32,000 nt of DNA from Nitrosomonas sp. Nm132 (GCF_900100485.1 NZ_FNDH01000001.1:41681-73680), one strand, 5' to 3'. Positions 7,947 through 31,591 are shown, numbered from the stretch's first letter. Program-made: numbers and translations. Notes: generated from the letters alone by a model not told the origin.

Positions 7947-7993
7947 CCTTAAAGAAATTGAGTTCTGGATGGGTCATTATTCCGGGAAGAGGG

Positions 7994-8065
7994 GTCGCGA
8001 ATCAAGAAAAATAAGAACGGTCACTGAGGTTATTGTTCACCCGAATAAGAATTCATGATTCTGGT
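7994..8065 (+). repeat. ~70-bp intergenic direct repeat, copy A
   Basis: gtcgcgaatcaagaaaaataa...ggttattgttcacc.gaataagaattcatgat.ct.gt recurs at 9468-9536 in the same orientation. The match is roughly 85% by eye with a 3-bp indel. Contains a small AATAAC/GTTATT hairpin. Confidence 0.8.
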
Positions 8066-9275: not shown

Positions 9276-9467
9276 AGAATAACTTCTAAAACCATAATAA
9301 GTTATAAAAAATTCTGTTGGCCTCCCAATGCTGCTCTTGCCAACGATCTTTCAGCCCGAAGCTTACCGTTCACTAATCACAGAATCTTCTTGAGAATAGC
9401 AGATTAAGGCTTCCTCTGTAGTGTCCTGACTGCTTCAGAGGTGGTTAGCGCACGAAAGGGATCAAGT

Positions 9468-9536
9468 GTCGCGAATCAAGAAAAATAACGGCAACTGGGG
9501 TTATTGTTCACCAGAATAAGAATTCATGATCCTAGT
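9468..9536 (+). repeat. ~70-bp intergenic direct repeat, copy B
   Basis: Same-orientation copy of 7994-8065. It lies between the OMP start and the TIR gene stop. Confidence 0.8.
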
Positions 9537-9563: not shown

Positions 9564-10640
9564 CTACTGCCTTTGCCCGCTATACGCCACTTCACCATTC
9601 GGGTTGTAGTCTAAACGTGGCGGGTTCTTTTCCAGCTCTAGCAACAGCAGCGTTGTACTGCCACCTACACTTTGGATCGTATTACCTACCCTCGTAAGAT
9701 CTATTTCAACAGTGCCCAATCTCTCATAATCTGAGGTGATCCTGACTTTTCGTTTGTTCACCTTGGCAATCGTCACGGTCACATCGGATCTCGAGCTGCC
9801 TTTCGAATCGGAGATGACATCGCCATAATAAATGCCCGCAACCAGATCAGCCAATTCAACCGGCTTTCTCGCCTCCCTGGAAATGGGCTGTTGAGTTAAG
9901 GGCTGCTCTCTAGCTGCCGGAAGTTTTGGCCCGAGTTCGGAGGAAGAGGAACTCGAACCAGGTATCGGCTTGGACGGTCCGTCGGCAGTAGGTGCAGGCG
10001 GTTCTCCTGTCTCAGCTATTAGCGTCGGCGACGATTGAGAGAGACTACGGTTTGTGGTTGGTGAATAGTCGAACAGAAGTGAAGAAAAAAGGACAACCAC
10101 AGCGAGTCCACCTGCTAGCCAGTAGAGCATAGATTTACGAGTGCGAAGATCCTGCTTACCACTTGATGTATTCGATTCACCAAGTGCCTTGCTAACAGCC
10201 TCCAGCAGTCTCTCCATGTCCGATTTGAAGCGGCTGTTGCTCACCTCAAGAGCGTTCCGCCGCGCAAGCGCGCGAAGAGGTTCCGGCAATGCCTCTTCGG
10301 CTGGCATGCTCGCTCCATCAAGTAGCACGGGGATCACGCGAATGTTTCGCGATAGTGCAGCAGCGATCTCAAGACGCACGAAGTCTTTCGGGTCGTTGAT
10401 GCGTAGACCTGCGCCCGCTTGCTGTTCCATCCAGCGCCTGCCGATCATCGCCAGAAGAATCTCACATTGGCCCACAGCGCGCTCGATGGCTTCATCAAAC
10501 GGGAAACCCGGCTCGATCGCATCCACATCCATAAAAATTCGCTCCCTGGAAAAATGCTGAACGAGCTGGTCGTAGATAGCGCGCGCGTAGCCTGCCGAGT
10601 CATCCCGGCGATAGCTAATAAAGATATGTCCGTTGCTCAT
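9564..10640 (-). CDS. TIR domain protein with one transmembrane helix and a C-terminal extracytoplasmic domain
   Basis: The N-terminus HIFISYRRDDSAGYARAIYDQL...IFMDVDAIEPGFPFDEAIERAV..CEILLAMIG..W......DFVRLEIAAAL..N.RVIPVLL fits the bacterial TIR_2 pattern. TM helix MLYWLAGGLAVVVLFSSLLF, then a Pro/Ser-rich linker and a ~100-aa beta-rich tail. ATG at 10640 is preferred over the listed GTG at 10658. Confidence 0.8.
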   Translation of the reverse strand: MSNGHIFISYRRDDSAGYARAIYDQLVQHFSRERIFMDVDAIEPGFPFDEAIERAVGQCEILLAMIGRRWMEQQAGAGLRINDPKDFVRLEIAAALSRNIRVIPVLLDGASMPAEEALPEPLRALARRNALEVSNSRFKSDMERLLEAVSKALGESNTSSGKQDLRTRKSMLYWLAGGLAVVVLFSSLLFDYSPTTNRSLSQSSPTLIAETGEPPAPTADGPSKPIPGSSSSSSELGPKLPAAREQPLTQQPISREARKPVELADLVAGIYYGDVISDSKGSSRSDVTVTIAKVNKRKVRITSDYERLGTVEIDLTRVGNTIQSVGGSTTLLLLELEKNPPRLDYNPNGEVAYSGQRQ

Positions 10641-10695
10641 CGATGTTCCATCCCACACCCTTATGCTTCCTGAATGCCATGATCTTGCTCGGTAT

Positions 10696-10755
10696 ACCTA
10701 ACGCTGGAGTTAAGCCGCCGCGCGTAGCGCGGTCGGCTTGAACGACTTGTTATGT
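10696..10755 (-). other. attC recombination site (cassette 2, 60 bp)
   Basis: Minus strand: ACATAAC AAGTC GTTCAAGCC GACCGCGCTACGCGCGGC GGCTTAAC TCCAGC GTTAGGT. R''=ACATAAC overlaps the ORF stop. L''/L' pair with one unpaired C. The central stem is GC-rich. R'=GTTAGGT fits GTTRRRY exactly. Confidence 0.85.
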
Positions 10756-11295
10756 GTTTGTTGCCCGTTGAATCAACCTGGATAGTCGTAATTTAATTTT
10801 GAACTTTTGTTTATCTAGAACCCACTTAAAAAAGCTTTTTTCGCTTTCTATTGGTCCATCAAGTGTATACAAATTACAACTTGAACCGTAGTTGAGTTTA
10901 AATTGGTACTTTCGGTATTTGGAAAAGTAGTACGTTGCCCCCACCGGACCTTTTGCTAAAAACTCTCTTGCCTCATGGGGTTTCAAAGCAAGATCATTGC
11001 CCATAATCTGCATGCTTACCTTTAACGGCAATCCATCTCTTGTTAGAGATACCACAGTAACAACCCCATCAAGAGAAGTTATCTTAGATCCTACATTGGT
11101 ACATTTAAACTTAAGTTCAGCACCAAAATTATTATCTGGATCATATGTTTGCTTAACCAGCACCGTATGTAGTCTTACTCTGGAAGTCCATTTTTCATAC
11201 CAGAAATAAATTCCACCCGTGCCTCCAATAAGATACAGAATCTTTAAAGGGTCATTAAAAAAATAGTCAATGACTTTGTAAATTAATTCTGTCAC
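10750..11295 (-). CDS. integron cassette ORF, hypothetical membrane-anchored protein (181 aa)
   Basis: GTG start preceded by GAGGAG. N-terminal hydrophobic helix LKILYLIGGTGGIYFWY, then a beta-rich domain. AT-rich. Bounded by attC sites on both sides. No family recognised. Confidence 0.6.
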   Translation of the reverse strand: MTELIYKVIDYFFNDPLKILYLIGGTGGIYFWYEKWTSRVRLHTVLVKQTYDPDNNFGAELKFKCTNVGSKITSLDGVVTVVSLTRDGLPLKVSMQIMGNDLALKPHEAREFLAKGPVGATYYFSKYRKYQFKLNYGSSCNLYTLDGPIESEKSFFKWVLDKQKFKIKLRLSRLIQRATNT

Positions 11296-11310
11296 TCAGA
11301 CTCCTCAAAC

Positions 11311-11373
11311 ACATAACGTTTTGGGTAACAGGCGCAACGACAGGAGCGTCCTAGTTGACCCAATTGTTATAAC
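11311..11373 (-). other. attC recombination site (cassette 1, 63 bp)
   Basis: Minus strand: GTTATAAC AA TTGGGTCAAC TAGGACGCTCCTGTCGTTGCGCCT GTTACCCAA AAC GTTATGT. ATAAC/GTTAT and TTGGGT(C)AAC/GTTACCCAA pair with an unpaired C, and the central stem has bulges. It starts directly after the ORF stop TAG. Confidence 0.75.
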
Positions 11374-12786
11374 CTACATTGGTAATTTCCAATCTGAAGC
11401 GTACTTTCTATACTCTGGCGCTTCTGTTTTTGGTGGCACATAGTGCTCATCATCTATTACAAAATTAGCAGCCATTAGGTCTCTCACTCCACCCAATCTC
11501 TCTGTTGAGGTGAGCTCTGATGCGATATCTTTGAAAAGTGTTGAGAAATTACCAGATTGATTATTGGCAATGAAATCAGGCAAAGGGATTTTGAAATCGA
11601 ATTCTGGAAATTGCGGAAGGCCTTTTAATGCTGCAACTGAATTATATACTTTCATTAAAAAGCTTCCCTGAATCCCTTGATCAGTTTTAAGGCCATATTT
11701 TGATCTTAATTCATGTTCTGCTTTCTTGAGCTGCTTCTCCCATTTTTGGATTGATTTATTAGCCTGTGTAATTCCACCCTCATCAAACCCAATTCGTATT
11801 TCCCTTAGAAGCCCTCTTACATCCTGCAAGCATTGCTCGTTTTTTATTTCAAGAGCCGAAGATATTATGTTTCGAGCATCACCGGACTGAACTGATAACC
11901 AAGCAGAAAATATTGGAATATCTAGTGAAACAGCTGTAGATCTTCCAGCGTCAATAATTTCACCTACCGAAGTTAATAGCTTATTCGATAAAGAACCTAC
12001 TAATTTTGCCGTAAAATCGTGACCAAATGCGCCCGTCTTTTTAAACCAATGAATTTGATAAGCATGTCTAATAGGATGAAGAAAAGTATCAGCTTTTAAA
12101 TAATTGGCTGCTAAGCTGTAATAAATCGACTTATAAGCAAGCCAATTTAGTGATGCGATAAACATATCCAGGGCACGAGTTGTACCACCATGACCTCGCC
12201 TAGCTGATTTTGCTTCTTCAGCCATTCTCTCTTTCGTGAGTTCTGTTCCATCTGAACCAATAAGTTTAATATCTGTTGACCAAACACCGAATGTATCGCC
12301 AGCATCCGAAAGTTCATTGTAGATAGCTGAACTCAGTTCGCTGTATTTTTCATACTCCAGTGTATTTGGTTGACCAAGCATTTTCAAGGTTAAATAATAA
12401 ACGCTCGAACGCAAATCCCAAGTACAAATCATATTTAGCTTAAGTAATCCAAGTAATTCCCGGAAATCTAGGTCCACAAATTCACCTGCGCGAATTTCGG
12501 GCCGGATTAATTTTGCTTCTGATTTTGCTTTTTCTGAAAAATTGTCTAACTGATAGTCTTCTGGTGATATGAACTTTATAAAATCGAATTCTTTTTTTCT
12601 TTCTTCCTTCTGCTCTTCTTTGTAATTATCAATGCAAACAAGCTCGTCATAAAAAAGGATCGCTTGAACGAAGTTTTCTAACGCTACAAGATCACCGTTT
12701 ATAGTATCGGGGTTTTTAACGACAATCTGACCCATGACCCTTTGCACAGCTGTAAGTGAGGCATTGTCAATCAGTGCATATGTCAT
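11374..12786 (-). CDS. integron cassette ORF, hypothetical protein (470 aa)
   Basis: Long AT-rich ORF with an AGGAAA RBS-like element 6-7 nt upstream of the ATG. It lies between the attI region and attC 1. No motif I can assign to a family. Confidence 0.65.
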   Translation of the reverse strand: MTYALIDNASLTAVQRVMGQIVVKNPDTINGDLVALENFVQAILFYDELVCIDNYKEEQKEERKKEFDFIKFISPEDYQLDNFSEKAKSEAKLIRPEIRAGEFVDLDFRELLGLLKLNMICTWDLRSSVYYLTLKMLGQPNTLEYEKYSELSSAIYNELSDAGDTFGVWSTDIKLIGSDGTELTKERMAEEAKSARRGHGGTTRALDMFIASLNWLAYKSIYYSLAANYLKADTFLHPIRHAYQIHWFKKTGAFGHDFTAKLVGSLSNKLLTSVGEIIDAGRSTAVSLDIPIFSAWLSVQSGDARNIISSALEIKNEQCLQDVRGLLREIRIGFDEGGITQANKSIQKWEKQLKKAEHELRSKYGLKTDQGIQGSFLMKVYNSVAALKGLPQFPEFDFKIPLPDFIANNQSGNFSTLFKDIASELTSTERLGGVRDLMAANFVIDDEHYVPPKTEAPEYRKYASDWKLPM

Positions 12787-12813
12787 CGGTGTTTCCTGTG
12801 GTTATAACTAGAA

Positions 12814-12876
12814 TTAGAACTCCGAAATGACGCAATACATCACGTCAAAAATGACATCTAACACGGCAAGCTGCAT
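12814..12876 (-). CDS. candidate 20-codon leader ORF in the attI region (MQLAVLDVIFDVMYCVISEF)
   Basis: Minus strand AGAAGGAGATAGC-ATG, a strong SD with 5-nt spacing. The ORF reads through the GTTAGAT core candidate and stops 27 nt before the cassette-1 ATG. Too short for the ORF track. Confidence 0.3.
   Translation of the reverse strand: MQLAVLDVIFDVMYCVISEF
12856..12862 (-). other. candidate attI/cassette crossover core (GTTAGAT)
   Basis: This is the only perfect GTTRRRY heptamer on the cassette strand between intI and cassette 1. A second, class-1-like context CTAACAAAG|TTTGTTA lies nearer intI (~12925-12941), so the assignment is uncertain. Confidence 0.3.
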
Positions 12877-12949
12877 GCTATCTCCTTCTGTTTTATAGAA
12901 TTACGCCGAATGAGCTTTCATCATAACAAACTTTGTTAGATCCACAAAT

Positions 12950-13273
12950 ATGACGAACAAGTCCCGGCTTTTGGACCAGATGCGGGATAAACTCAGGCTC
13001 AAGCATTACAGCTATCGCACGGAGCAATCTGATATTGCCTGGATAAAACGTTTCATTTTCTTTTACAACAAGCAGCACCCCGATACGATGGGAGAAAGGG
13101 AAGTTGAATCGTTTCTGATTTATCTCGCAGTTAAACGAAATATTGCTGCATCCACACAGAATCAGGCGCTGTGCGCGCTGCTATTTTATATAAGGAGGTA
13201 TCAGGCTGTGAATACACACAAAGTCTTGCATTGTCACCCAACAGACAAAGCCTATCCCCACTCTATTGCTTGA
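12950..13273 (+). pseudogene. intI: integron integrase remnant (N-terminal ~80 codons only)
   Basis: LLDQMRDKLRLKHYSYRTEQSDIAWIKRFIFFYNKQHPDTMGEREVESFLIYLAVKRNIAASTQNQALCALLF matches the IntI N-terminal SAM-like domain pattern. After ~nt 13200 the reading frame is unrelated, and no catalytic domain appears in any frame before amoC. Confidence 0.75.
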
Positions 13274-13383: not shown

Positions 13384-14205
13384 TTAAACAACATCATCCA
13401 GAATCGCTCGGCTTTGTTCGTTCCATTGCACATCCAGGAGGTTGGAAAAGCGTGCAATGACCTGGATGACAACGCCCCCAGAGAACAAAGCGGCCCATGC
13501 CAGTATCACGAAGCCCCAATGTAGCGGTGCGCTAAAGAGTTCCTCCATGAACCAGAAGGCATGGCCCCATTCATTCAAACCAACGTTCGGGAGGCTCATC
13601 AGCGGACCGGCAATAGACATCACCAAAGGAAACGAGGTTCCCTTGTTGTACAGTGGCAATCGCGTCCTTGCATATAGGAAAGTTGATACGCCTATGATGA
13701 TGTACATCGGGAACGAGCCGTAAAATAGCGGAATGTGGCTGGGCGTGAAACTGGTGTCGCGAATGATCACCTGATGCCAGGAAGCATCCTGTTCAGTGAA
13801 GAAACTCGAACCCCAATAGACAGCAAACATGTACACCCCTAACCACATCATGAAATAAAAATACCGCTTAATTTCCATTTTCACCGGCAGGTTCGCCAGT
13901 TGTTCCTGGGTATCGCGTGTTTTCCATACCCAACCCCAGACCGTCAGCGCCAAGATCGGCCAGAGTGTCATTTGGAAACGCCATAGGCCCATCCAGATTT
14001 GATCGAACTCCGGTTCCATGGAGTCCATCCCATGGGAGTAGGCGTAGGTCCGCTGAAACCAGACCCAGAAAATTGCTATTCCCAGTATGGGTAGAAGACC
14101 CAGCTTGTAAAACCTGGAATCATACCATTCCGACATGTCATAGGCAGGACTGCCTGCCTTCGCTGCTTTATCTACCGATCTGTTTCCAAGTGCAGGAATA
14201 CTCAT
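13384..14205 (-). CDS. amoC: ammonia monooxygenase subunit C, singleton copy (amoC3-like; no amoA/amoB downstream)
   Basis: The 273-aa translation is near-colinear with Nitrosomonas AmoC as I recall it ([82 protein letters not shown]). GAGGAG RBS. A terminator follows rather than amoAB. Confidence 0.95.
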
Positions 14206-18130: not shown

Positions 18131-18219
18131 AACCTGTCCACATTTTCAATTCTTCTACCAAGGAAGCCTCTGATAATCTCTCGCTTCGCGGTTCGTTCAG
18201 AGGCTCAGAGGCTTTCTAG

Positions 18220-18381
18220 CCCGAATATTTCATAAATTCGCGTGATGATCACGCAGGATTTTGATTAGTCGGGAAGTTTTGAGAAGGAAGGGTCTAGTGA
18301 TTCATACACCCGACTGAGCAAAATCTTTCTTATTAATCAAAAGACAAGTGAGGACACGTGCCAATTTATGAAATATTCGGG
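18220..18381 (+). mobile_element. 162-bp MITE, copy 1
   Basis: 19-bp perfect terminal inverted repeats CCCGAATATTTCATAAATT / AATTTATGAAATATTCGGG. Internal palindrome GCGTGATGATCACGC. No ORF. Flanked by CTAG on both sides. Confidence 0.85.
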
Positions 18382-18514
18382 CTAGTGTAGCGTCTCTCAA
18401 ATGACTGAGTCATCGTTAGCATAATCGTTTGGATTGGACTCGATCAATCTAGCCTCTAGTAAAACCACGCTGGTTTTCTCGGCTGATACGAAAAAATCAA
18501 ACGCGAGTATAGAA

Positions 18515-19234: not shown

Positions 19235-19659
19235 GCGATGACACAGTAGATTTTTCACGATGATCGATAGTGAAACGATTTTTCTTTTGAACATAAGTAT
19301 CAGTGTGACTCCATTGGAAACGCATGGTTTAGGCAGGCTGTTCAAAAAAGATTTAATCTGTGGCTCACGCGCCAAGGCGCTCAAGGCTGCGCCTCCTGGC
19401 AACGCTTCTCGGAGTACTGCATAGACTGGCCGCTTCGAGTCTCGGCATAGGATCATGCAACGTGAGTCCGGCGGAGGTCTTGATATTGATTCTGATCAGC
19501 GCCGCACGGCCGTGCTTGAGAAGCTCCAACCCAGCTACATTCGCAGTAGGGAAATACAAACACCCTTTGCCTACTAGCAGGAATGTACCGAGGATCACCC
19601 ATATTGTCAAACATCCTAAGGAATGATCTAAAAAAGGAATTTTGCCTCACTCATATTAA

Positions 19660-19821
19660 CCCGAATATTTCATAAATTGGCACGTGCCCTCACTTGCCTT
19701 TTGATTAATAAGAAAGATTTTGCTCAGTCGGGCGTATGAATCACTACACCCCTCTTTCTCAAAACTTCCCTATTAATCAAAATCCTGCGTGATCATCACG
19801 CGAATTTATGAAATATTCGGG
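19660..19821 (-). mobile_element. 162-bp MITE, copy 2 (inverted relative to copies 1 and 3)
   Basis: Same TIRs and internal sequence in reverse orientation. Flanked by TTAA on both sides. Confidence 0.85.
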
Positions 19822-20115
19822 TTAAAAAGTACTCTGATGACTCTGGTACATTCAAGCGAATAACGACCAAGGGAAAGAGCCAGCTCAGAAAGGAAAGACG
19901 AAGACAGTGCGTCACCACACAATGAGTCAACGGGATCAAACGCTGAAGTATTTCCACGAATAGATAGTTAACTATCAATCCGTCAGGATTATTTTTAACC
20001 CAAGGGAACCTCCAGGATAACTTGCAAAGGCACTGCCAGGATAATTCGCAGCAAGAGCTTACATTTGACAGATTCCACCAAGCTTGACCCTTTTGATTCC
20101 AGGCTGATGCGGCTT

Positions 20116-23974: not shown

Positions 23975-24014
23975 CCGTTCTCGCCACGCAGGATGGGCAA
24001 ATCGTCGCCATTGG

Positions 24015-24176
24015 CCCGAATATTTCATAAATTCGCGTGATGATCACGCAGGATTTTGATTAATAGGGAAGTTTTGAAAAGGAGGGGTATAGTGATTCAT
24101 ACACCCGACTGAGCAAAATCTTTCTTATTAATCAAAAGGCAAGTGAAGACACGTGCCAATTTATGAAATATTCGGG
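24015..24176 (+). mobile_element. 162-bp MITE, copy 3
   Basis: Same TIRs and internal sequence as copy 1, in the same orientation. The flanks (TTGG / CTAG) do not match each other. Confidence 0.85.
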
Positions 24177-24309
24177 CTAGCACTGTTAAACTGATTGCGC
24201 CGATAACGATGAGGAGATTGACTGGCAATATTACTGGGGAAATTGATTGACATTCAAATAACTTGAGAAACGGCCAGGAATGGCTCGTCAAGCCCCTCCA
24301 ATGACAGGA

Positions 24310-24956: not shown

Positions 24957-25190
24957 TCACGCGAAGTTCTTCCTCCCAGGGGCGTTGCTTTTTAGCACCC
25001 AAGATAATTGGTGCCCCCCCTCTAATCCATGCTCATCAGCATTCTCATATAAGGCAGCGCCCTCAATCGTCAATTCCAAGCTGGCAAAATGGACTGGATT
25101 ATTCCTGCCAAATTCATACAGCACCCACTTACCCGCACCGTCCTTGCGGAAGATTTCTGTTTTTCGTCGGAAGGAAACTGCCGGTATTTC
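24957..25190 (-). pseudogene. 3' fragment of an Uma2 (DUF820)-like endonuclease gene, 5' part missing
   Basis: Stop-to-stop minus-strand frame EIPAVSFRRKTEIFRKDGAGKWVLYEFGRNNPVHFASLELTIEGAALYENA... resembles Uma2 C-termini (..VY.R...g.W....y......l.L.S....l.l.eiYe..). It has no start codon, and the frame closes 17 bp before hairpin repeat H1. Confidence 0.45.
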
Positions 25191-25207
25191 TCAAATTTAT
25201 TTCCTCC

Positions 25208-25265
25208 GTAAGAAGGGACAGGTCTATATTTAATATCATAAAATATAGACCTGTCCCCAACAATG
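25208..25265 (+). repeat. 58-bp hairpin repeat H1
   Basis: GTAAGAAG-GGGACAGGTCTATATTT-aatatcata-AAATATAGACCTGTCCC-CAACAATG. The stem is a 17-bp perfect match. Confidence 0.9.
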
Positions 25266-25813
25266 GGTGTTTATATAAAAGTAGTGTGACTGCTGACTGC
25301 CATAACTTTTAAAAAAGCTTTTTAGCACTTTTCTTACATCAAATTTAGAATTCTGCTTATTTTATATTTCTTCAGAAAATTGTAACCTTTATTAAATTAA
25401 GCTATTAGAAGCTACAAGTTAAAAGTTAACACCAAATTTACACCAATCCCTACAAATTCATTGCTTTAGAGTTTTAAAAATTAATTAAAACATTGTTTGT
25501 AAATTCATTCGCTATAAAAAATTTTTGAGTGAGATCTGACTTTAAGTATCGACATAGTTAGAGCTTTAAGTTTTATTTGGCTTCGTTATAAGTTTGATCT
25601 TTAATTTCAATATTCTGTTAGGCGTATCTGGTAATCACCGATTGCACACCTAACAAACAAAGCCATCATCCAATTGCTGCTTATATTATGGGTGTTGGAT
25701 CGAGGATGATGTGCAGTTGACGGTTAAGATTGTCGTGCTGTTCATCATGATATAGCTGGGGTATGTTGTTTTTGTACCTATTTATTTTGACTAAAATAGA
25801 AAAAGGTTTAACA

Positions 25814-26233
25814 ATGACTAAGATTATCATTTCAGCAGCCATTTTGGTTTTTTCTGCGTTCGCGTTGCAAACACCCGCTTATGCTGATAATCCAGCGGGA
25901 TCTTATCAGCAAACGTGCACTAATATCGTTCTGAAAGGAGAAACGCTGAGCGCGAGTTGTACCCGTTTCGATGGATCGAAGAAGAATAGCGAACTGCCAT
26001 TCGCAACTTCTTGCGTGGGAATCATCAGTAACGTCGATGGTAACCTAGTTTGCACTGGCCCCACCGGTTCCTTTGCCAGAACTTGCAAAGATTCGTCAGT
26101 AGCAAACAACAAACTGTCTGCAACTTGTCAAAAAATTGATGGCAGTTGGGTGTCTTCCAGCACCAGTTTTAGCGGTTTTCAACATCCTGTAACCAACTGC
26201 AATGGTCAATTGGTTGACAAGCCGGATTGTTAA
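25814..26233 (+). CDS. secreted CVNH (cyanovirin-N homology) lectin-like protein
   Basis: AAAAGG RBS. Signal peptide MTKIIISAAILVFSAFALQTPAYA|D. Two tandem half-domains (YQQTCTNIVLKGETLSASCTRFDGS...ISNVDGNLVC and FARTCKDSSVANNKLSATCQKIDGS...VTNCNGQLV) parallel cyanovirin-N (FSQTCYNSAIQGSVLTSTCERTNG...IENVDGSLKW / FIETCRNTQLAGSSELAAECKTR...IANIDGTLKY, recalled from memory). Confidence 0.7.
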   Translation: MTKIIISAAILVFSAFALQTPAYADNPAGSYQQTCTNIVLKGETLSASCTRFDGSKKNSELPFATSCVGIISNVDGNLVCTGPTGSFARTCKDSSVANNKLSATCQKIDGSWVSSSTSFSGFQHPVTNCNGQLVDKPDC

Positions 26234-26487
26234 TAAAGTATAGTTTGTATTTAGGGTAGTTCTATCCCTGAAAATTTGCGCTAAACTGGAGTCTCAGGAG
26301 CCACGAGAATCATGTGCGATTCCTGGGACATTTCCATATAAGCGCACTGAACCTTAATGTTGCTTACGCATTGTTCGGATCCCCCGTATTATTCATGATT
26401 CAACCTCTAGCTCGTAATCAAAGTAGTGGAATTCTATATAGAAATAGTGATAGCTACTACCTTCCTTACATGCCATAAGCATAATGA

Positions 26488-26545
26488 GTAAGGAGGGACA
26501 GGTCTATATTTAATATCATAAAATATAGACCTGTCCCCAACAATG
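26488..26545 (+). repeat. 58-bp hairpin repeat H2
   Basis: Identical to H1 except GTAAGGAG in place of GTAAGAAG. Same orientation. Confidence 0.9.
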
Positions 26546-26590
26546 CTGTTAGCTCCTGTGGATAAGGATATAAGTAATCAGCGTACTCAA

Positions 26591-26869
26591 TTACGATTTT
26601 GGGGCATACGCATTACACCAACCTTCAGGGCTTATGCTGCCTTCTACAACTTTGCATTCGCCGCTAACTTCAGGTGTCTTGCCTGGGATGAATTGCATGC
26701 AATTACTACATTTTTCCTTCCCGTTTGGGTTGTTACGATACTGCATTGCTTCCTTGGAAGCTTTTGCCGCTTTCACCTGGTCAGTGAATGCACTCACAAA
26801 GGGAACGGTAGCACCTAATGCCATGAGTTTTATTATCTTACGACGCGAGAATTTCTTTTGATGATTCAT
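26591..26869 (-). CDS. high-potential iron-sulfur protein (HiPIP) with Tat signal
   Basis: Twin-arginine leader FSRRKIIKLMALGA. Cys pattern C-x2-C-x14-C-x12-(W)C (KCSNCMQF...GECKVV...GWCNAY) is typical of HiPIP. Confidence 0.8.
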   Translation of the reverse strand: MNHQKKFSRRKIIKLMALGATVPFVSAFTDQVKAAKASKEAMQYRNNPNGKEKCSNCMQFIPGKTPEVSGECKVVEGSISPEGWCNAYAPKS

Positions 26870-27144
26870 AATCTCTCCTCGGATTCGGATAAGTTAAAAT
26901 ACAACAACGGCTAGGTATTTCTTCTGGCAAATAAATTTCTGAATTTGATTGATGTTTCATTCTCAAATCCAAAGAATTATTCTAATCCTTTTTTTTGTGA
27001 TGTAAGACTTCAATTATTAATCGGCAAATCAACTTTCTCAATGCTTCATCTCATTGTTGACGTACTGCATCAAACGTTCGATCAGTAGATGAGCATACCG
27101 TTTTATCGTTAAAGCCATTCCGCAAAAATTTTTACACCCGCATG

Positions 27145-27220
27145 CGCGTAAGAAGGGACACGCGTAAGAAGGGACAGGTCTATATTTTATTATATAAAAT
27201 ATAGACCTGTCCCCAACAAT
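27145..27220 (+). repeat. hairpin repeat H3 (variant with 16-bp tandem duplication)
   Basis: cgcGTAAGAAGGGACA is duplicated in tandem. The stem is extended to 20 bp (GGGACAGGTCTATATTTTAT / ATAAAATATAGACCTGTCCC) with a 3-nt loop. The 3' tail is CAACAATA. Confidence 0.9.
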
Positions 27221-27309
27221 ATTAATTTTCCACACTATGCTCAATTGCAAGACGCGCCCCCATTTTTTTCACGACCCCATTTTTTCACGTTATTTTCTAC
27301 ATCAGGAAA

Positions 27310-27864
27310 TTAGAAAATACCAAAACGTTTCTTTTTACCAACTCCGCTTCTAAGATACTCCAATAACTGACCTATTTTTATATGAAGAGCAACTTGAGCA
27401 CCTGGGTTGAGGTTGGAAAAAAGCGCCATAATAGAAGTGGCTGCCGTAAGTCCATCTAACACTTGGCCCAAGGAATTATCTCCGCTTTTATTGTTAGGCG
27501 ATATTAAAACGTATTCCGTGTGAAGGGTGCTTGGCGCAATCTCGACTACGATAAATGTGTCAAAAAAATTTATTAAGAATTCATACGGAAATTTTTTATG
27601 GACATCATACTGACTAACAAAATCATATTTTACAAGTATGTTACTGATATCGAATTTTGCTAAAAATCGATATTTCTCAAAGAAAAAACGAGCGGACTCC
27701 TTAGCGGGGCCTCCGTTAAGTATAATTTCTGGAATATGATCAGCTATTACATAATCACTAACCACATAATTATCTAAGAGCTTATCAATTGACGAATTAA
27801 AGAGCTTCTTAATGGGGATTTTTTTAGTAATTGCATCGTTTATCAATTCATGTGTAAGAAACAT
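27310..27864 (-). CDS. hypothetical protein (184 aa), AT-rich
   Basis: Clean ORF in an AT-rich unit between H3 and H4. No recognisable motif. Confidence 0.5.
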   Translation of the reverse strand: MFLTHELINDAITKKIPIKKLFNSSIDKLLDNYVVSDYVIADHIPEIILNGGPAKESARFFFEKYRFLAKFDISNILVKYDFVSQYDVHKKFPYEFLINFFDTFIVVEIAPSTLHTEYVLISPNNKSGDNSLGQVLDGLTAATSIMALFSNLNPGAQVALHIKIGQLLEYLRSGVGKKKRFGIF

Positions 27865-28021
27865 ATTATTCGCTTCCGTAATTAAGTTATTCTTCTTTTA
27901 CGGCGTGCGATCTTAGCCCTTTAGGGTTATCTAAAAATGCAGAAGGCTGAGAATCTTAGATATCTCTGTTTTACCCGCAACATGAACCTACCACCCTCTC
28001 TCTCCTTCATTATTCACGGTA

Positions 28022-28079
28022 GTAAGAAGGGACAGGTCTATATTTAATATCATAATATATAGACCTGTCCCCAACAATG
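28022..28079 (+). repeat. 58-bp hairpin repeat H4
   Basis: Same as H1 with one substitution in the right arm, giving a 15-bp perfect stem. It ends 5 bp before the stop codon of the SNF2 gene. Confidence 0.9.
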
Positions 28080-28084
28080 CACTT

Positions 28085-31000
28085 TCATCCCAAACTGAAC
28101 ACGTCTTTAAGCTCGGCATTGCTTAGATTCCCCATCCATTTTTCCCCGATACCGACGGTCAGGTCAGCCAGCTCGCGTTTGGATTGAATCATGTCATTGA
28201 TGCGTTCCTCGAAGGTGGCGCGGGTAATCAGGCGATGGACCTGGACATTATGCTGCTGGCCGATGCGATAGGCCCGATCGGTTGCTTGCGCTTCCACAGC
28301 GGGATTCCACCATAGATCGAAATGAATCACATTGGTGGCCGCTGTCAGATTAAGACCGGTGCCACCTGCCTTTAGCGACAACAAAAAAACGCGCTCGGTA
28401 CGATCATGCTGGAATCGTTCCACCATGATATCGCGTGTTTTTCGTGCGACACCGCCATGCAGGAACTGGGGTTCCCGCCCATACCGCGTTTTGATCCATG
28501 CCGCCAGTAAATCTCCTGCTTCGCGAAATTGCGTAAATACCAGTACTTTTTCATGGGCTGCGAAGATGGGATCGAGCAGATCGAGAAACAGTTCTGCTTT
28601 GCCGGACAGGCTCGCGTCGCTGTCTCCTTTCTTGAGATACTGCGCCGGATGATTGCAGATTTGCTTCAAGGCCATGATCATTTGCAGAATTAGCCCCTCA
28701 CGCTTGAAGGTGTCGGATTCGCCATTGATGACCTGCAACGCTTCACGCACGACGGATTCATACAAGGCCGCCTGTTTGTTAGTCAGCTCGCAATATTGAT
28801 TCTGTTCGATCTTGTCGGGCAAATCACTGATAATGCTTTTATCTGATTTAAGGCGTCGCAGCAAGAACGGACTGGTGACGCGTTTGAAACGCTGCGCCAC
28901 TTGCTGATCATGGTCGTTTTGTATGGGTACGGCAAACTCTTTGGTGAAATGAGTGAGATTGCCCAGAAAGCCGCGATTGGCAAAATCCATAATGCTCCAG
29001 TATTCAGCTAGCCGGTTTTCAACCGGTGTGCCCGTCAAGGCGACGAAGGAAGAGGCAGGAATGGATTTCACAGCCTTGGTTTGTGCAGCAACGGAGTTTT
29101 TGATGTTCTGCGCTTCATCGACAATGACGATGCGCCAGGAAAGCTTCTTGAGCTTGGCGAGATCGGTACGTACCCTGCCGTAGGTAGTGAGTAGCACATC
29201 CGCCCGCTCTTTTGCCAACATCCGCTCCGCACCATGAAAAAGGTGTACCGTCAGGGTCGGTGCAAATCGCGCAATTTCTTTGGTCCAGTTGGTAAGCAAA
29301 CTGGTCGGCACAATCACCAGCGCCTTTGCCTCATGCAGGCTTCCTTCTTCTTTGAGTTTCAGTAAAGTAACAATTACCTGGAGTGTTTTTCCCAGCCCCA
29401 TGTCATCGGCCATAACGCTGCCAAATCCGGCCCGAATATTGCGATACAGCCAGGCATAGCCGCGTTCCTGGTACGGCCGCAAGATTGCATTGAGCTCGCT
29501 GGGCAACGGCACATTGCTGATCTCAGTCAACTCACGAATGATATCCCGCGCTTTTGCGTCCAGACTGATAGGCGTGCCAAGATACTCCTCGCTCAGGGCG
29601 GTGCGTAACAGCTCAGCCGGGGTAATGCGAGGCGGTTTTTCTAGTTGCCGGCGCAACCGTTCAATGTCGGCAGGCTCGAGATAGACATATTCACCCTTGA
29701 AGCGCACGACGCCATGGGCAGTCTTGACCAATTCCTCAAACTCGGCCCTGGTGAGCTGGGTATTGCCAATCGCCACCGTCCAGTCAAAACCAAAAATATC
29801 ATTCGCATTGAGAAAACCTGTGCTGCCGGTGTTTTTGCTGGATAACTTCATCGATAGCCGAGGCCGCAGGAGGTGATCGAGCGCTTTGGGCAGCAATGCG
29901 CGTATACCAAGCAGCCGGATTATCGGCAGCGTATCGAATAGAAAGGCGGGGAAAGTTTCAGGACTCAGTGCGACCGGGGCAGTAGCACCCGCACTGATAT
30001 AGTGATTGAAGGCGGGAAAAAATTCGGCGAGTAATGATACCGTTTGCAGCACGCCGTAGCGATTTGTCTGCCATGCTTTATCCGTCAGCAAGCGAGCGAA
30101 TGGCACAGGCTCCTGCAAAGGATTATCGCGTGCGACCACCCCCAGCGACAGACTGAATTCCGCTCCGTTATCCTCCAGCTGCAATACCGGCACATAAGTT
30201 TGCTGACCAACATGAAAGCGCGACAACCACAATTGCACGCCGGAGCCTACTTCCCCTTCGCCCGGTCCATCAAACCGGGCATGGCCGCGACCAAAAAACA
30301 GGTCGAGTAGTTTGTTGCCATACGGTTTCTGGTTGCGAGCATCGCCCCAATAGCGGATCAACTCACCTAAAAACAAGCTGCATAATGCAAGCACTTGCGC
30401 TTCACCAGTGGGATTAACCGCCTTCTTGCCGCTGCGATAAGCCAGCAATCCTGGCGGCAGCAGCGATGCCAGTCGATTGACCAAGGTCCTGACGGCCTCA
30501 TCCAACATCGCTGGTAACCAGCGCAAGCCTGCTTCCGATTCGCCCACTGCGAACACTTGAGGCAAGACCGCGCCTTGTGCTAGCAGATGCAGGCTAACCA
30601 TGCGAGCATGGTACATGGCGGCTACCTCTGGTTGGAGATCAGGCAAATCAGCTTCGACAAGCTGCTGCAGTGTGAATACCCAATCTATCCAGCGCGCCTG
30701 CACTGTTAATCCGGCAAGGGCGGGTTGATAGGTGTGATCAAGCACAACACGCGGTTTATCTGCCGGGGTAATGGCTACTGACTTGATATCAGCCATCGCT
30801 GCAACTGTTTTAAGCGCAAGACGAGCTTGCTTGATGACGCGCTTCATCACTTTTTCGTAGATGATGCGAAAATCGCCTTGCCGAAAGAAAGCGGGATTCG
30901 CAGGCAATACGCTCATCAGGGAAGCCGCAAGATCAGGCAAGATGGAATAATCGAGTGTGCTGTAATCCTCCAGGCCAGCACTATCCTGCACCAGGGCTGC

Positions 31001-31591
31001 CTGCTGCTGCGACGGCTGATCCAGCAAGGCCGTTACCGTCGGCAAAGTCGCCTTGGCCTCGCGCTCGATCGAAATATGACGTGCTGCCAGCTCCTTAGTA
31101 AGATCGACTCCCTTCAATGAAAATACCAGAAAGGGATTGCCATCGATTTCCCGACTGATCAGATAAATCACCGCGGCCAGGTGTTTACATGGCACAGCCC
31201 AATCCGGACAAGAGCAGGACATGGAAAGATCGGTCCAGCGCGCCGGGAAAATATCGACCTTAAGTGCTTTGGCACGTTCCAGAACTGCGGGATCTAGCTC
31301 ACGATTGAGCATTTTCGAGATAATGACCGGATCGAGTGCCAGCGCATCAAGTAAAGCTTTAGCCTGTTGCTGAGGCATGGCCGGGACCTTGATTGCCACG
31401 TCATAAGGGCGAGGGCGCGAGCCTTTTACCTTGGCATGAATTTTTCCATGCTGAATTTCAATTTTCGTTACCGCTCCCTTGTTGGCATAACTGCGTCCAC
31501 GTGGCAGGCGGTTGTCATAATCAATTTGTGAGAGGGAATTAAGCCACTGCGCTCCCCACCAGGTTTGGCCATAGCCTCTATGTGCTGTCAT
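28085..31591 (-). CDS. SWIM zinc-finger / SNF2-family helicase
   Basis: N-terminal SWIM CSCPDWAVPCKH. SNF2 ATPase motifs DDMGLGKT (I), VIVDEAQNIKN (II) and LTGTPVEN (III). Helicase-C motifs LLSLKAGGTGLNLT and QATDRAYRIGQ. Confidence 0.9.
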   Translation of the reverse strand: MTAHRGYGQTWWGAQWLNSLSQIDYDNRLPRGRSYANKGAVTKIEIQHGKIHAKVKGSRPRPYDVAIKVPAMPQQQAKALLDALALDPVIISKMLNRELDPAVLERAKALKVDIFPARWTDLSMSCSCPDWAVPCKHLAAVIYLISREIDGNPFLVFSLKGVDLTKELAARHISIEREAKATLPTVTALLDQPSQQQAALVQDSAGLEDYSTLDYSILPDLAASLMSVLPANPAFFRQGDFRIIYEKVMKRVIKQARLALKTVAAMADIKSVAITPADKPRVVLDHTYQPALAGLTVQARWIDWVFTLQQLVEADLPDLQPEVAAMYHARMVSLHLLAQGAVLPQVFAVGESEAGLRWLPAMLDEAVRTLVNRLASLLPPGLLAYRSGKKAVNPTGEAQVLALCSLFLGELIRYWGDARNQKPYGNKLLDLFFGRGHARFDGPGEGEVGSGVQLWLSRFHVGQQTYVPVLQLEDNGAEFSLSLGVVARDNPLQEPVPFARLLTDKAWQTNRYGVLQTVSLLAEFFPAFNHYISAGATAPVALSPETFPAFLFDTLPIIRLLGIRALLPKALDHLLRPRLSMKLSSKNTGSTGFLNANDIFGFDWTVAIGNTQLTRAEFEELVKTAHGVVRFKGEYVYLEPADIERLRRQLEKPPRITPAELLRTALSEEYLGTPISLDAKARDIIRELTEISNVPLPSELNAILRPYQERGYAWLYRNIRAGFGSVMADDMGLGKTLQVIVTLLKLKEEGSLHEAKALVIVPTSLLTNWTKEIARFAPTLTVHLFHGAERMLAKERADVLLTTYGRVRTDLAKLKKLSWRIVIVDEAQNIKNSVAAQTKAVKSIPASSFVALTGTPVENRLAEYWSIMDFANRGFLGNLTHFTKEFAVPIQNDHDQQVAQRFKRVTSPFLLRRLKSDKSIISDLPDKIEQNQYCELTNKQAALYESVVREALQVINGESDTFKREGLILQMIMALKQICNHPAQYLKKGDSDASLSGKAELFLDLLDPIFAAHEKVLVFTQFREAGDLLAAWIKTRYGREPQFLHGGVARKTRDIMVERFQHDRTERVFLLSLKAGGTGLNLTAATNVIHFDLWWNPAVEAQATDRAYRIGQQHNVQVHRLITRATFEERINDMIQSKRELADLTVGIGEKWMGNLSNAELKDVFSLG

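Follow-up and report, generated by a model that had tools for sequence, protein, structure and literature searches.

A 58-bp hairpin repeat at the joints of a strain-variable gene island in Nitrosomonas

Strain-variable, gene-sized modules parted by a structured repeat are a hallmark of integrons. Among other described elements, repetitive extragenic palindromes (REPs) have a conserved short 5′ motif, GTAG, and are usually imperfect palindromes of 20-40 nt, often in inverted pairs; pdif sites of 28 bp (11-6-11) follow the dif consensus, alternate in orientation and bound modules that occur in varied contexts; Correia elements, 100-150 bp long, have terminal inverted repeats and a TA duplication, and exchange around them relies on transformation and on homology of the flanks rather than on the repeats; and the insertion sequence IS608 has TTAC as its target. 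Here we analyze a stretch of 32,000 nt from Nitrosomonas sp. Nm132 (GCF_900100485.1, NZ_FNDH01000001.1:41681-73680; hereafter the window), in which four hairpins split an AT-rich island flanked by the genes for an SNF2 helicase and a uracil-DNA glycosylase (UDG). This arrangement has the integron hallmark, but the repeat is not an attC and the integrase in the window is a stump. Our best explanation, which we put forward tentatively, is that the repeat is a lineage-restricted, REP-like and terminator-like 58-bp hairpin that stands at every joint of a patchwork SNF2-UDG hot-spot island, integron-cassette debris included, and that modules recombine there.

Repeat finding across the window returned four direct copies of a 58-60-nt repeat, with identities of 87-100% and spacings of 1280, 676 and 858 bp. 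When folded as single-stranded DNA, each copy formed an unbroken stem of 15-20 bp (ΔG -14.7 to -25 kcal/mol; z -6 to -10). Together, these results confirm four co-oriented hairpins with asymmetric tails, as an earlier description made from the DNA alone (the sequence-only reading) had proposed. The copies are as follows (↓ marks a junction or nick):

25207-25266, minus strand: hairpin H1, whose 3′ edge CTTAC↓G meets codon ~119 of a truncated Uma2 gene
26487-26546, minus strand: hairpin H2, with the 3′ tail TCCTTAC
27163-27222, minus strand: hairpin H3, with a 20-bp stem, a 3-nt loop and the 5′ tail TATTG
28021-28080, minus strand: hairpin H4, reading CATTGTTG-GGGACAGGTCTATAT..ATATAGACCTGTCCC-TTCTTAC on the minus strand

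Most of the local genes have the minus strand as their sense strand, and there the element reads (C/T)ATTGTTG - GGGACAGGTCTATATTT - loop - AAATATAGACCTGTCCC - TTCTTAC; on the plus strand the stem is preceded by GTAAG(A/G)AG in all four copies. The tails are asymmetric, not inverted copies of each other, and the edges of the element are sharp (YATTGTTG...TTCTTAC, minus strand). Between them, arms of 17 bp are inverted about an asymmetric 9-bp center, TATGATATT, which differs in H3. The 15-nt arm GGGACAGGTCTATAT has eight exact matches in the window, namely the two arms of each of the four hairpins, as inverted pairs; with up to three mismatches there are 11 matches against 0.47 expected, a number reached in 0 of 100 shuffles. 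These four are also the only long near-perfect hairpins (stem of at least 13, at most one mismatch) in the 32 kb. Across nine aligned copies the 3′ tail T-CTT-C is unchanged, and the 5′ tail is absent from two. One variant preserves stem pairing through a compensatory change from A-T to C-G, and one hairpin variant of the 58-mer carries GGGCCAGG. Partial tandem duplications of arm and tail occur in at least five copies (H3, L006, L004, L007 and a variant in the sister strain Nm58; L numbers denote the contigs examined); in H3 the duplicate is 16 nt of its own 3′ end, at 27147-27162. An Rfam scan of the window matched no family.

The island has a GC content of 0.34-0.43 and the nearby flanks ~0.48-0.62, save for lower-GC windows near 19.5 kb and 21-22 kb. 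The segments between hairpins are gene-sized, each with its own long 5′ leader, and the gene layout given by the sequence-only reading was borne out:

28085-31591, minus strand: SNF2/SWIM helicase gene, the conserved left flank; homology with Nm58 ends at 28080, which is the H4 edge
27223-28020, minus strand: module 1, with a 184-aa open reading frame (ORF) at 27310-27864 that was assigned to no family, and a 157-nt 5′ leader
26547-27146, minus strand: module 2, with a HiPIP gene at 26591-26869 and a 277-nt 5′ leader
25267-26486, plus strand: module 3, with a CVNH-domain gene at 25763-26233, on the strand opposite to the other modules
25016-25206, minus strand: remnant (3′ third) of a Uma2-family endonuclease gene that is intact in Nm58 (L016 15919-16410)
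24310-24897, minus strand: UDG family gene, the conserved right flank

Module 1 closes with 47 nt (27222-27268) from the 3′ end of a higBA toxin-antitoxin cassette.

Related contigs were gathered by look-ups of the island proteins, and included the sister strain Nm58 (GCA_900107335.1) and metagenome contigs (samples behind L004, L006, L007 and L018: JGI 3300049571/75, SRR148777xx and SRR29564167). The comparison for gain, loss or shuffling of individual units, a check that the sequence-only reading had called for, was positive in L006/L011, L004/L005, L007, L018 and Nm58. L006/L011 (JGI metagenome, 96.5-98.6% identity) have the order SNF2, hairpin, HiPIP, hairpin, CVNH, hairpin, Uma2 remnant, UDG. 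They lack exactly window positions 27221-28021, which correspond to the 184-aa module and one hairpin; position 28022, at the SNF2 end, is joined to 27220, and the joint hairpin retains the H4 loop marker. In L004/L005, which are 99.75% identical across the 184-aa module, the module runs into a complete higA antitoxin gene and the hairpin comes only after higA. L018 has a variant hairpin (GGGCCAGGTC...GACTTGGCCC, tail TTCTTGC), then the 184-aa module, 14 nt left over from the 3′ end of a hairpin, and ordinary chromosomal genes; the neighbors of the module there are two-component genes. In L007 a classical attC, 92.7% identical to the window attC at 10698-10752, and a short segment of unrelated DNA precede the 3′ end of the higBA cassette; next come a hairpin and the HiPIP module, and then a second hairpin leads into the start of the CVNH module. 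The Nm58 flanks match at 97.6% identity as far as the H4 edge and again from the Uma2 gene on, with different cargo between them. First comes a degenerate hairpin variant in inverted orientation, with a tandem duplication of 19 nt, then a second version of the attI region (90% identical), two classical-attC cassettes and the beginning of the higBA cassette, in which higA is truncated. The sole canonical hairpin at this locus follows, and then another repeat and the intact Uma2 gene. In more distant Nitrosomonas species the DNA beyond SNF2 is different and has no hairpin.

All breakpoints between these module combinations lie at a hairpin edge or inside a hairpin. Downstream modules start directly past CTTAC, as seen in three contexts for the 184-aa module (TACCGTG...) and in three for the HiPIP module (GCGCATGCGGG...). 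The DNA upstream of a given hairpin varies; it keeps the markers of the left half (the H4 loop variant and the TATTG tail), and the right half of the hairpin with its TTCTTAC tail goes with the downstream DNA. Since the halves travel with the adjoining DNA, the crossover lies within the hairpin or at its 3′ edge, and in one informative case the exchange was placed to the right of the loop. Five joints could be aligned with a hairpin-free relative, and at none of them has the hairpin simply been inserted into otherwise continuous DNA; each links unrelated segments. No target duplication flanks any copy, and truncations fall exactly at element edges: in Nm132, Uma2 is truncated at H1 and the higBA cassette is cut to 47 nt at H3; in Nm58, higA is truncated at the hairpin.

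The higBA cassette stops at the hairpin 5′ edge in L004, Nm58 and Nm132, and forms a decay series: intact in L027 (93-860), higA only in L004 (793-1278), a truncated higA in Nm58 (L016 15317-15476) and the 3′ fragment of 47 nt in Nm132 (27222-27268). The Nm58 island also holds a relic of ~47 nt of an SNF2 3′ end (L016 15649-15695). This relic is nearer to a distant Nitrosomonas lineage (L025) than to the SNF2 gene of Nm58, which suggests imported DNA. We considered whether an integrating element had displaced the original 3′ end of SNF2, and rejected this; the same C-terminus is found in distant Nitrosomonas species, and the Nm58 'relic' is a foreign fragment.

On these alignments, the repeat is a marker of module exchange, and it probably mediates that exchange as well. 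We propose that recombination at co-oriented copies would delete, gain and re-sort modules, the left half of the hairpin remaining with the upstream DNA and the right half, with TTCTTAC, presumably remaining with the downstream DNA. The long perfect palindrome would itself provoke tandem duplications at its edges and deletions beside them. In RNA of the gene-sense strand, the 17-bp stem followed by UUCUUAC would probably terminate or stabilize the transcripts of SNF2, the 184-aa gene and HiPIP. New joints would most plausibly be placed by a nuclease of the HUH type, acting in trans and specific for the single-stranded hairpin, as with REP/RAYT (REP-associated tyrosine transposase), the ends of IS200/IS605 elements and relaxase-oriT pairs. 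We favor such an enzyme; the element combines a hairpin with short, asymmetric and conserved tails and lacks both terminal inverted repeats and target duplications, which is the anatomy that these enzymes use. No gene for an HUH-type nuclease is present in the window, and general (RecA-type) exchange between the 58-bp copies together with ordinary instability of the hairpin would yield the same products.

The position of the crossover bears on whether the hairpin could instead be a site at which a tyrosine or serine recombinase acts on double-stranded DNA, similar to lox or dif, with 17-bp arms and an asymmetric 9-bp spacer, between co-oriented copies of which modules would be excised and re-integrated. 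In favor are the perfectly inverted arms about an asymmetric center, the direct orientation of the copies, and the partition of left and right halves between upstream and downstream DNA, which suits a crossover within or near the hairpin. However, the sole informative crossover falls past the loop on its right side, in the arm or the tail there and not in the central spacer; the center of H3 differs, yet H3 shares in the polymorphism; and the conserved asymmetric tails are left without explanation. No recombinase gene lies nearby, there is no likeness to the dif consensus and no turn of GC skew in the window, and to our knowledge a 17-9-17 geometry with an odd center fits no known site family. 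We therefore consider a site of this kind quite improbable. A dif or pdif site of the Xer system was rejected in particular: the geometry is 17-9-17, the sequence is unrelated, all copies are direct, and cumulative GC skew is monotonic across the window.

Precise junctions at CTTAC↓ raise another explanation, a dedicated and undescribed single-stranded DNA cassette system in which an HUH enzyme supplied in trans nicks the folded site at CTTAC↓ or in the loop at TATG↓ATA. DNA between two sites would leave as a circle with one regenerated site and re-insert at another, in the manner of relaxases at two oriT sites or Rep proteins at tandem origins. Consistent with this, the 184-aa and HiPIP modules begin exactly past CTTAC in each of their three contexts, L006 lacks one module together with one hairpin, the 3′ tail is invariant, deletions stop precisely at element edges, and neither target duplications nor terminal inverted repeats are present. 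The canonical copies are co-oriented, with the hairpin and TTAC on the G-rich strand, the lagging-strand template, and the loop and right arm recall the nick region of phiX174/pC194-type origins (TG↓ATATTAA..TATAGACC). When the phiX origin was fetched and aligned (TGATATTAA..TATAGACC), the match had a P of 0.016-0.022 against composition-matched palindromes, which is not significant given that several motifs were compared; a phiX174/pC194-type nick site was thus not accepted and is retained as a lead only. Furthermore, exchange between repeats accounts equally well for all of the products, the HUH hairpins known to us are short and imperfect, module DNA occurs hairpin-free in relatives, and attachment of the site to new DNA has no explanation in this scheme. 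We consider such a system unlikely. A wider form of the idea, in which the hairpin would be the site of an undescribed attC-independent exchange system whose hairpin-specific trans enzyme, HUH-type or other, moves promoter-bearing modules alongside a dead integron and outlives it, seems to us slightly less unlikely but still doubtful.

A linked enzyme was sought on every contig examined, and no HUH, tyrosine or serine recombinase gene adjoins any copy. The statement of the sequence-only reading that no recombinase is visible in the window has to be amended for a truncated integron integrase gene, intI, which lies with attI and attC ~12 kb away. The 184-aa protein, examined as a candidate enzyme, had no match in Pfam or PADLOC, and no HUH-like motif was seen in it by eye.

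The same genes were also found without hairpins. The nearly exact H3-H2 stretch (27144-26549, the HiPIP module) is 97.5% identical to L014 9728-10321 on another Nm58 contig, where it belongs to a larger AT-rich region that is free of the repeat; the HiPIP gene there is followed by a different long hairpin and TTCTTAT. CVNH homologs that are 88% identical (L020-L023) lie beside housekeeping genes and are hairpin-free, and in another lineage (L027) an intact higBA pair stands upstream of Uma2 with no hairpin. Because HiPIP, CVNH and higBA all occur hairpin-free in relatives, the hairpin is better regarded as an element of joints than as an intrinsic part of a gene, as attC is of a cassette. The sequence-only reading had each unit ending in the hairpin as a cassette ends in attC, which is too simple, and had itself named relatives with the same genes and no hairpins as evidence against its view; HiPIP, CVNH and higBA are such cases. 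At the Nm58 HiPIP locus, a tRNA-like 3′ fragment, TGGTAGGCCGTGCGCGACTCGAACGCGCGACC (L014 9596-9650), adjoins the AT-rich region, resembling the boundary of a genomic island. Upstream of the CVNH gene in Nm132, ~205 bp at 25443-25647 are missing from the hairpin-free CVNH loci L020-L023; this extra DNA may be an insertion, or the difference may be plain divergence.

How widely the repeat is distributed was assessed by scans with the exact arm. No related copy was found in 185,579 species-representative genomes (a set without Nm132 and Nm58), in which two unrelated hairpins have the same stem, or in JGI (Joint Genome Institute) metagenome contigs, which gave two unrelated matches; viral contigs gave no match at all. 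BLAST against plasmids found nothing, and against phages only chance matches of 20 nt. A protein database queried with the three stop-free reading frames of the hairpin gave no candidates; gene callers evidently call no ORF across it. A literature search returned no mention of this repeat or of a Nitrosomonas palindromic repeat of similar kind. In the collections searched, the element is thus not a ubiquitous REP. Within ~80 kb of Nm132 and Nm58 DNA (the window, L014, L016 and L034) the repeat is confined to the island, an observation that speaks against a random scatter of more than ~150 copies per genome. A stem of 14-15 nt, GGGACAGGTCTATA / TATAGACCTGTCCC, does recur (L001 7840-7880, L002 3866-3915, L008 4147-4195 and L009 2635-2690), as a terminator-like hairpin downstream of genes in a Spirochaetales metagenome-assembled genome, in Cellulosilyticum ruminicola and in two metagenome contigs. 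These matches, more than chance would suggest, share the stem and not the tails or loop; an outer GGG is present in three of the four.

A role as intrinsic terminator is plausible, with putative RNA 3′ ends at ...GUCCCUUCUU. The sense-strand RNA folds into a stem of -27 to -33 kcal/mol followed by UUCUUAC, and the hairpin starts 5 nt past the SNF2 stop codon (H4), ~45 nt past that of HiPIP and ~88 nt past that of the 184-aa gene; a scan with a terminator consensus makes no call. The sequence-only reading had held that the repeat is not a classical terminator, which is right in that it is not a textbook one, but its statement that neither strand has a U-tract is too strong, the minus-strand tail being T-rich (TTCTTAC). 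The hairpins might then be nothing more than terminators, alike through common descent from one duplicated terminator that came in with imported DNA, and the differences between strains would stem from ordinary homologous replacement of the whole SNF2-UDG interval. In support of this, the strong sense stem and UUCUUAC lie just past stop codons, a comparable long hairpin with UUCUUAU is found at the native HiPIP locus of Nm58, and the 14-15-nt arm occupies terminator-like positions in the Spirochaetales, Cellulosilyticum and metagenome sequences mentioned above. However, breakpoints fall at the hairpin edge or inside the hairpin and not at random in the interval, copies are 87-97% identical amid unrelated modules, a simple terminator scan calls none of them, and the CVNH module is on the other strand, where the tail reads CAACAATG. 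We regard terminators alone as a rather improbable account.

Several observations weigh against the REP-like, recombining hairpin that we favor. The identity to the right of the loop, ~24 nt, is marginal for RecA-dependent exchange. Covariation support for the stem is weak, consisting of a single pair, and 57 of 500 shuffles were equally good. An unrelated hairpin in L008 has the same kind of arm and tail duplication, so that the duplication scars are not enzyme-specific, and we attribute them to palindrome-induced slippage rather than to a specific enzyme. The absence of a recombinase gene beside any copy counts here as well. As for REPs themselves, GTAAG(A/G)AG precedes the stem, but the stem is much longer and more perfect (17-20 bp) than in described REPs, and the copies are direct. 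Copy number and scatter, which define REPs, were judged from only the ~80 kb of isolate DNA.

Integron debris lies in the same window, ~12 kb from the hairpin island:

12950-13273, plus strand: truncated integron integrase gene intI, with the N-terminal SAM-like domain only
12804-12949, plus strand: attI region, with the crossover TTCTAG↓TTAT
11305-11376, minus strand: classical attC, at one end of a 181-aa cassette
10690-10759, minus strand: classical attC, at the other end of that cassette

Every relative in the 90% cluster of the intI stump is likewise 84-123 aa long. The stretch 9564-13273 as a whole is a decayed chromosomal integron, with the intI stump, attI, cassettes of 470 aa and 181 aa and a TIR/ThsB-like gene of 364 aa. 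At the same attI, the first cassette of Nm58 is another one (L034 11405-11959), and cassette turnover has therefore occurred, though intI is truncated in all relatives seen.

With these remains nearby, the hairpin could be taken for an atypical attC- or attI-like site of the integron integrase. The minus-strand 5′ tail GTTGGGG recalls GTTRRRY, the tail CCCAACAAT recalls the 5′ end of the local attCs, the SNF2-UDG interval of Nm58 has attI and attC cassettes followed by the hairpin, and in L007 an attC adjoins hairpin modules. But the RYYYAAC ... GTTRRRY inverse core is absent: the 5′ tail is only GTTGGGG-like, TTCTTAC is not complementary to it, and there is no R box. The hairpins have no unpaired spacer or extrahelical bases, in contrast to the bulges and internal loop of five genuine local attCs. 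A covariance model built from those five found only the same five in 118 kb and no hairpin at E values up to 10 (the model is narrow, having also missed a short attC in L034). The linked intI is an N-terminal stump, and the junctions are not at G↓TT, four further conserved bases lying upstream. An integrase site is thus largely refuted and very improbable, in agreement with the sequence-only reading, which had likewise set aside attC on the grounds of the missing core and unbroken stem.

The remaining families were tested individually. CRISPR was dismissed, as it had been before, since the spacings of 676-1280 bp contain genes and no cas domains were found. A miniature inverted-repeat transposable element (MITE) was rejected for want of terminal inverted repeats, target duplications and filled versus empty sites (0 of 5 joints being a simple insertion). 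A palindrome-associated transposable element (PATE) of the IS200/IS605 type was rejected because the same perfect hairpin stands at all the joints and the modules contain no left-end hairpin, although their junctions do follow TTAC, the IS608 target.

Other repeats and genes of the region were noted in passing. A second repeat family, GGTCGCGAATCAAGAAAAATAAG ... GTTATTG ... GAATAAGAATTC, with no match in Rfam, stands at joints of variable DNA (window 7984-8065 and 9458-9536; L016 15565-15640; L018 1339-1422), one Nm58 copy directly after the canonical hairpin. A MITE-like element of 167 nt with 26-bp terminal inverted repeats occurs at 18219-18385, 19659-19825 (inverted) and 24014-24180, the last where Nm58 has a GH114 gene (L016 17638-18522). 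An orphan amoC gene, for subunit C of ammonia monooxygenase, at 13384-14205 abuts the intI stump on the opposite strand.

If the hairpin is an active site, it would represent an independent, second route to modular gene capture in an environmentally important lineage of nitrifiers; and because it adjoins genuine attI and attC sites, the question of how recombination sites become attached to genes would, if this is true, become experimentally approachable. If it is instead REP-like or terminator-like and supplies only portable homology and fragility, the island would be a clean natural case of a 58-bp palindrome structuring a hot spot of variation, ordinary in kind.

In comparison with known systems, the island resembles integron cassettes and CALINs (clusters of attC sites lacking integrases) in that co-oriented structured repeats part unrelated, AT-rich, gene-sized units that vary between strains and are mixed with genuine attI and attC; it differs in that the hairpin has no R''/R' inverse core, the units have long 5′ leaders, the same genes occur repeat-free elsewhere and the integrase is truncated. 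With REPs, bacterial interspersed mosaic elements (BIMEs) and RAYTs it shares a short intergenic palindrome with a short conserved 5′ motif (GTAAG, plus strand), a position at rearrangement joints, the lack of target duplications and terminal inverted repeats, and a likely activity as terminator or messenger RNA stabilizer. Unlike them, it has a perfect 17-20-bp stem and canonical copies that are all direct, is confined to one island in ~80 kb of isolate DNA, is absent from representative genomes and has no RAYT or HUH gene on any fetched locus. HUH systems such as oriT and rolling-circle origin pairs, and the right ends of IS200/IS605 elements, likewise have a hairpin and a junction a few bases on (CTTAC↓), and share the appearance of an excisable unit between two co-oriented sites and a strand-specific logic; in contrast, no enzyme was found on the examined contigs, and the likeness to the phiX174 origin is statistically unconvincing. 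IS200/IS605 elements have distinct imperfect hairpins at both ends together with tnpA or tnpB, and differ in this from a joint hairpin. The pdif modules of Acinetobacter plasmids, or dif-integrated tandem elements, are also discrete gene modules bounded by short palindromic sites in varied contexts, whereas the joint hairpins are 58 bp long, unrelated in sequence, all direct and chromosomal. Finally, the minimal mobile elements of Neisseria with Correia or dRS3 repeats offer a hot spot between conserved genes with strain-specific cargo and small structured repeats, able to act as terminators, at the joints, but the Correia elements there are 100-150 bp long, with terminal inverted repeats and TA duplication, and exchange does not take place at the repeats.

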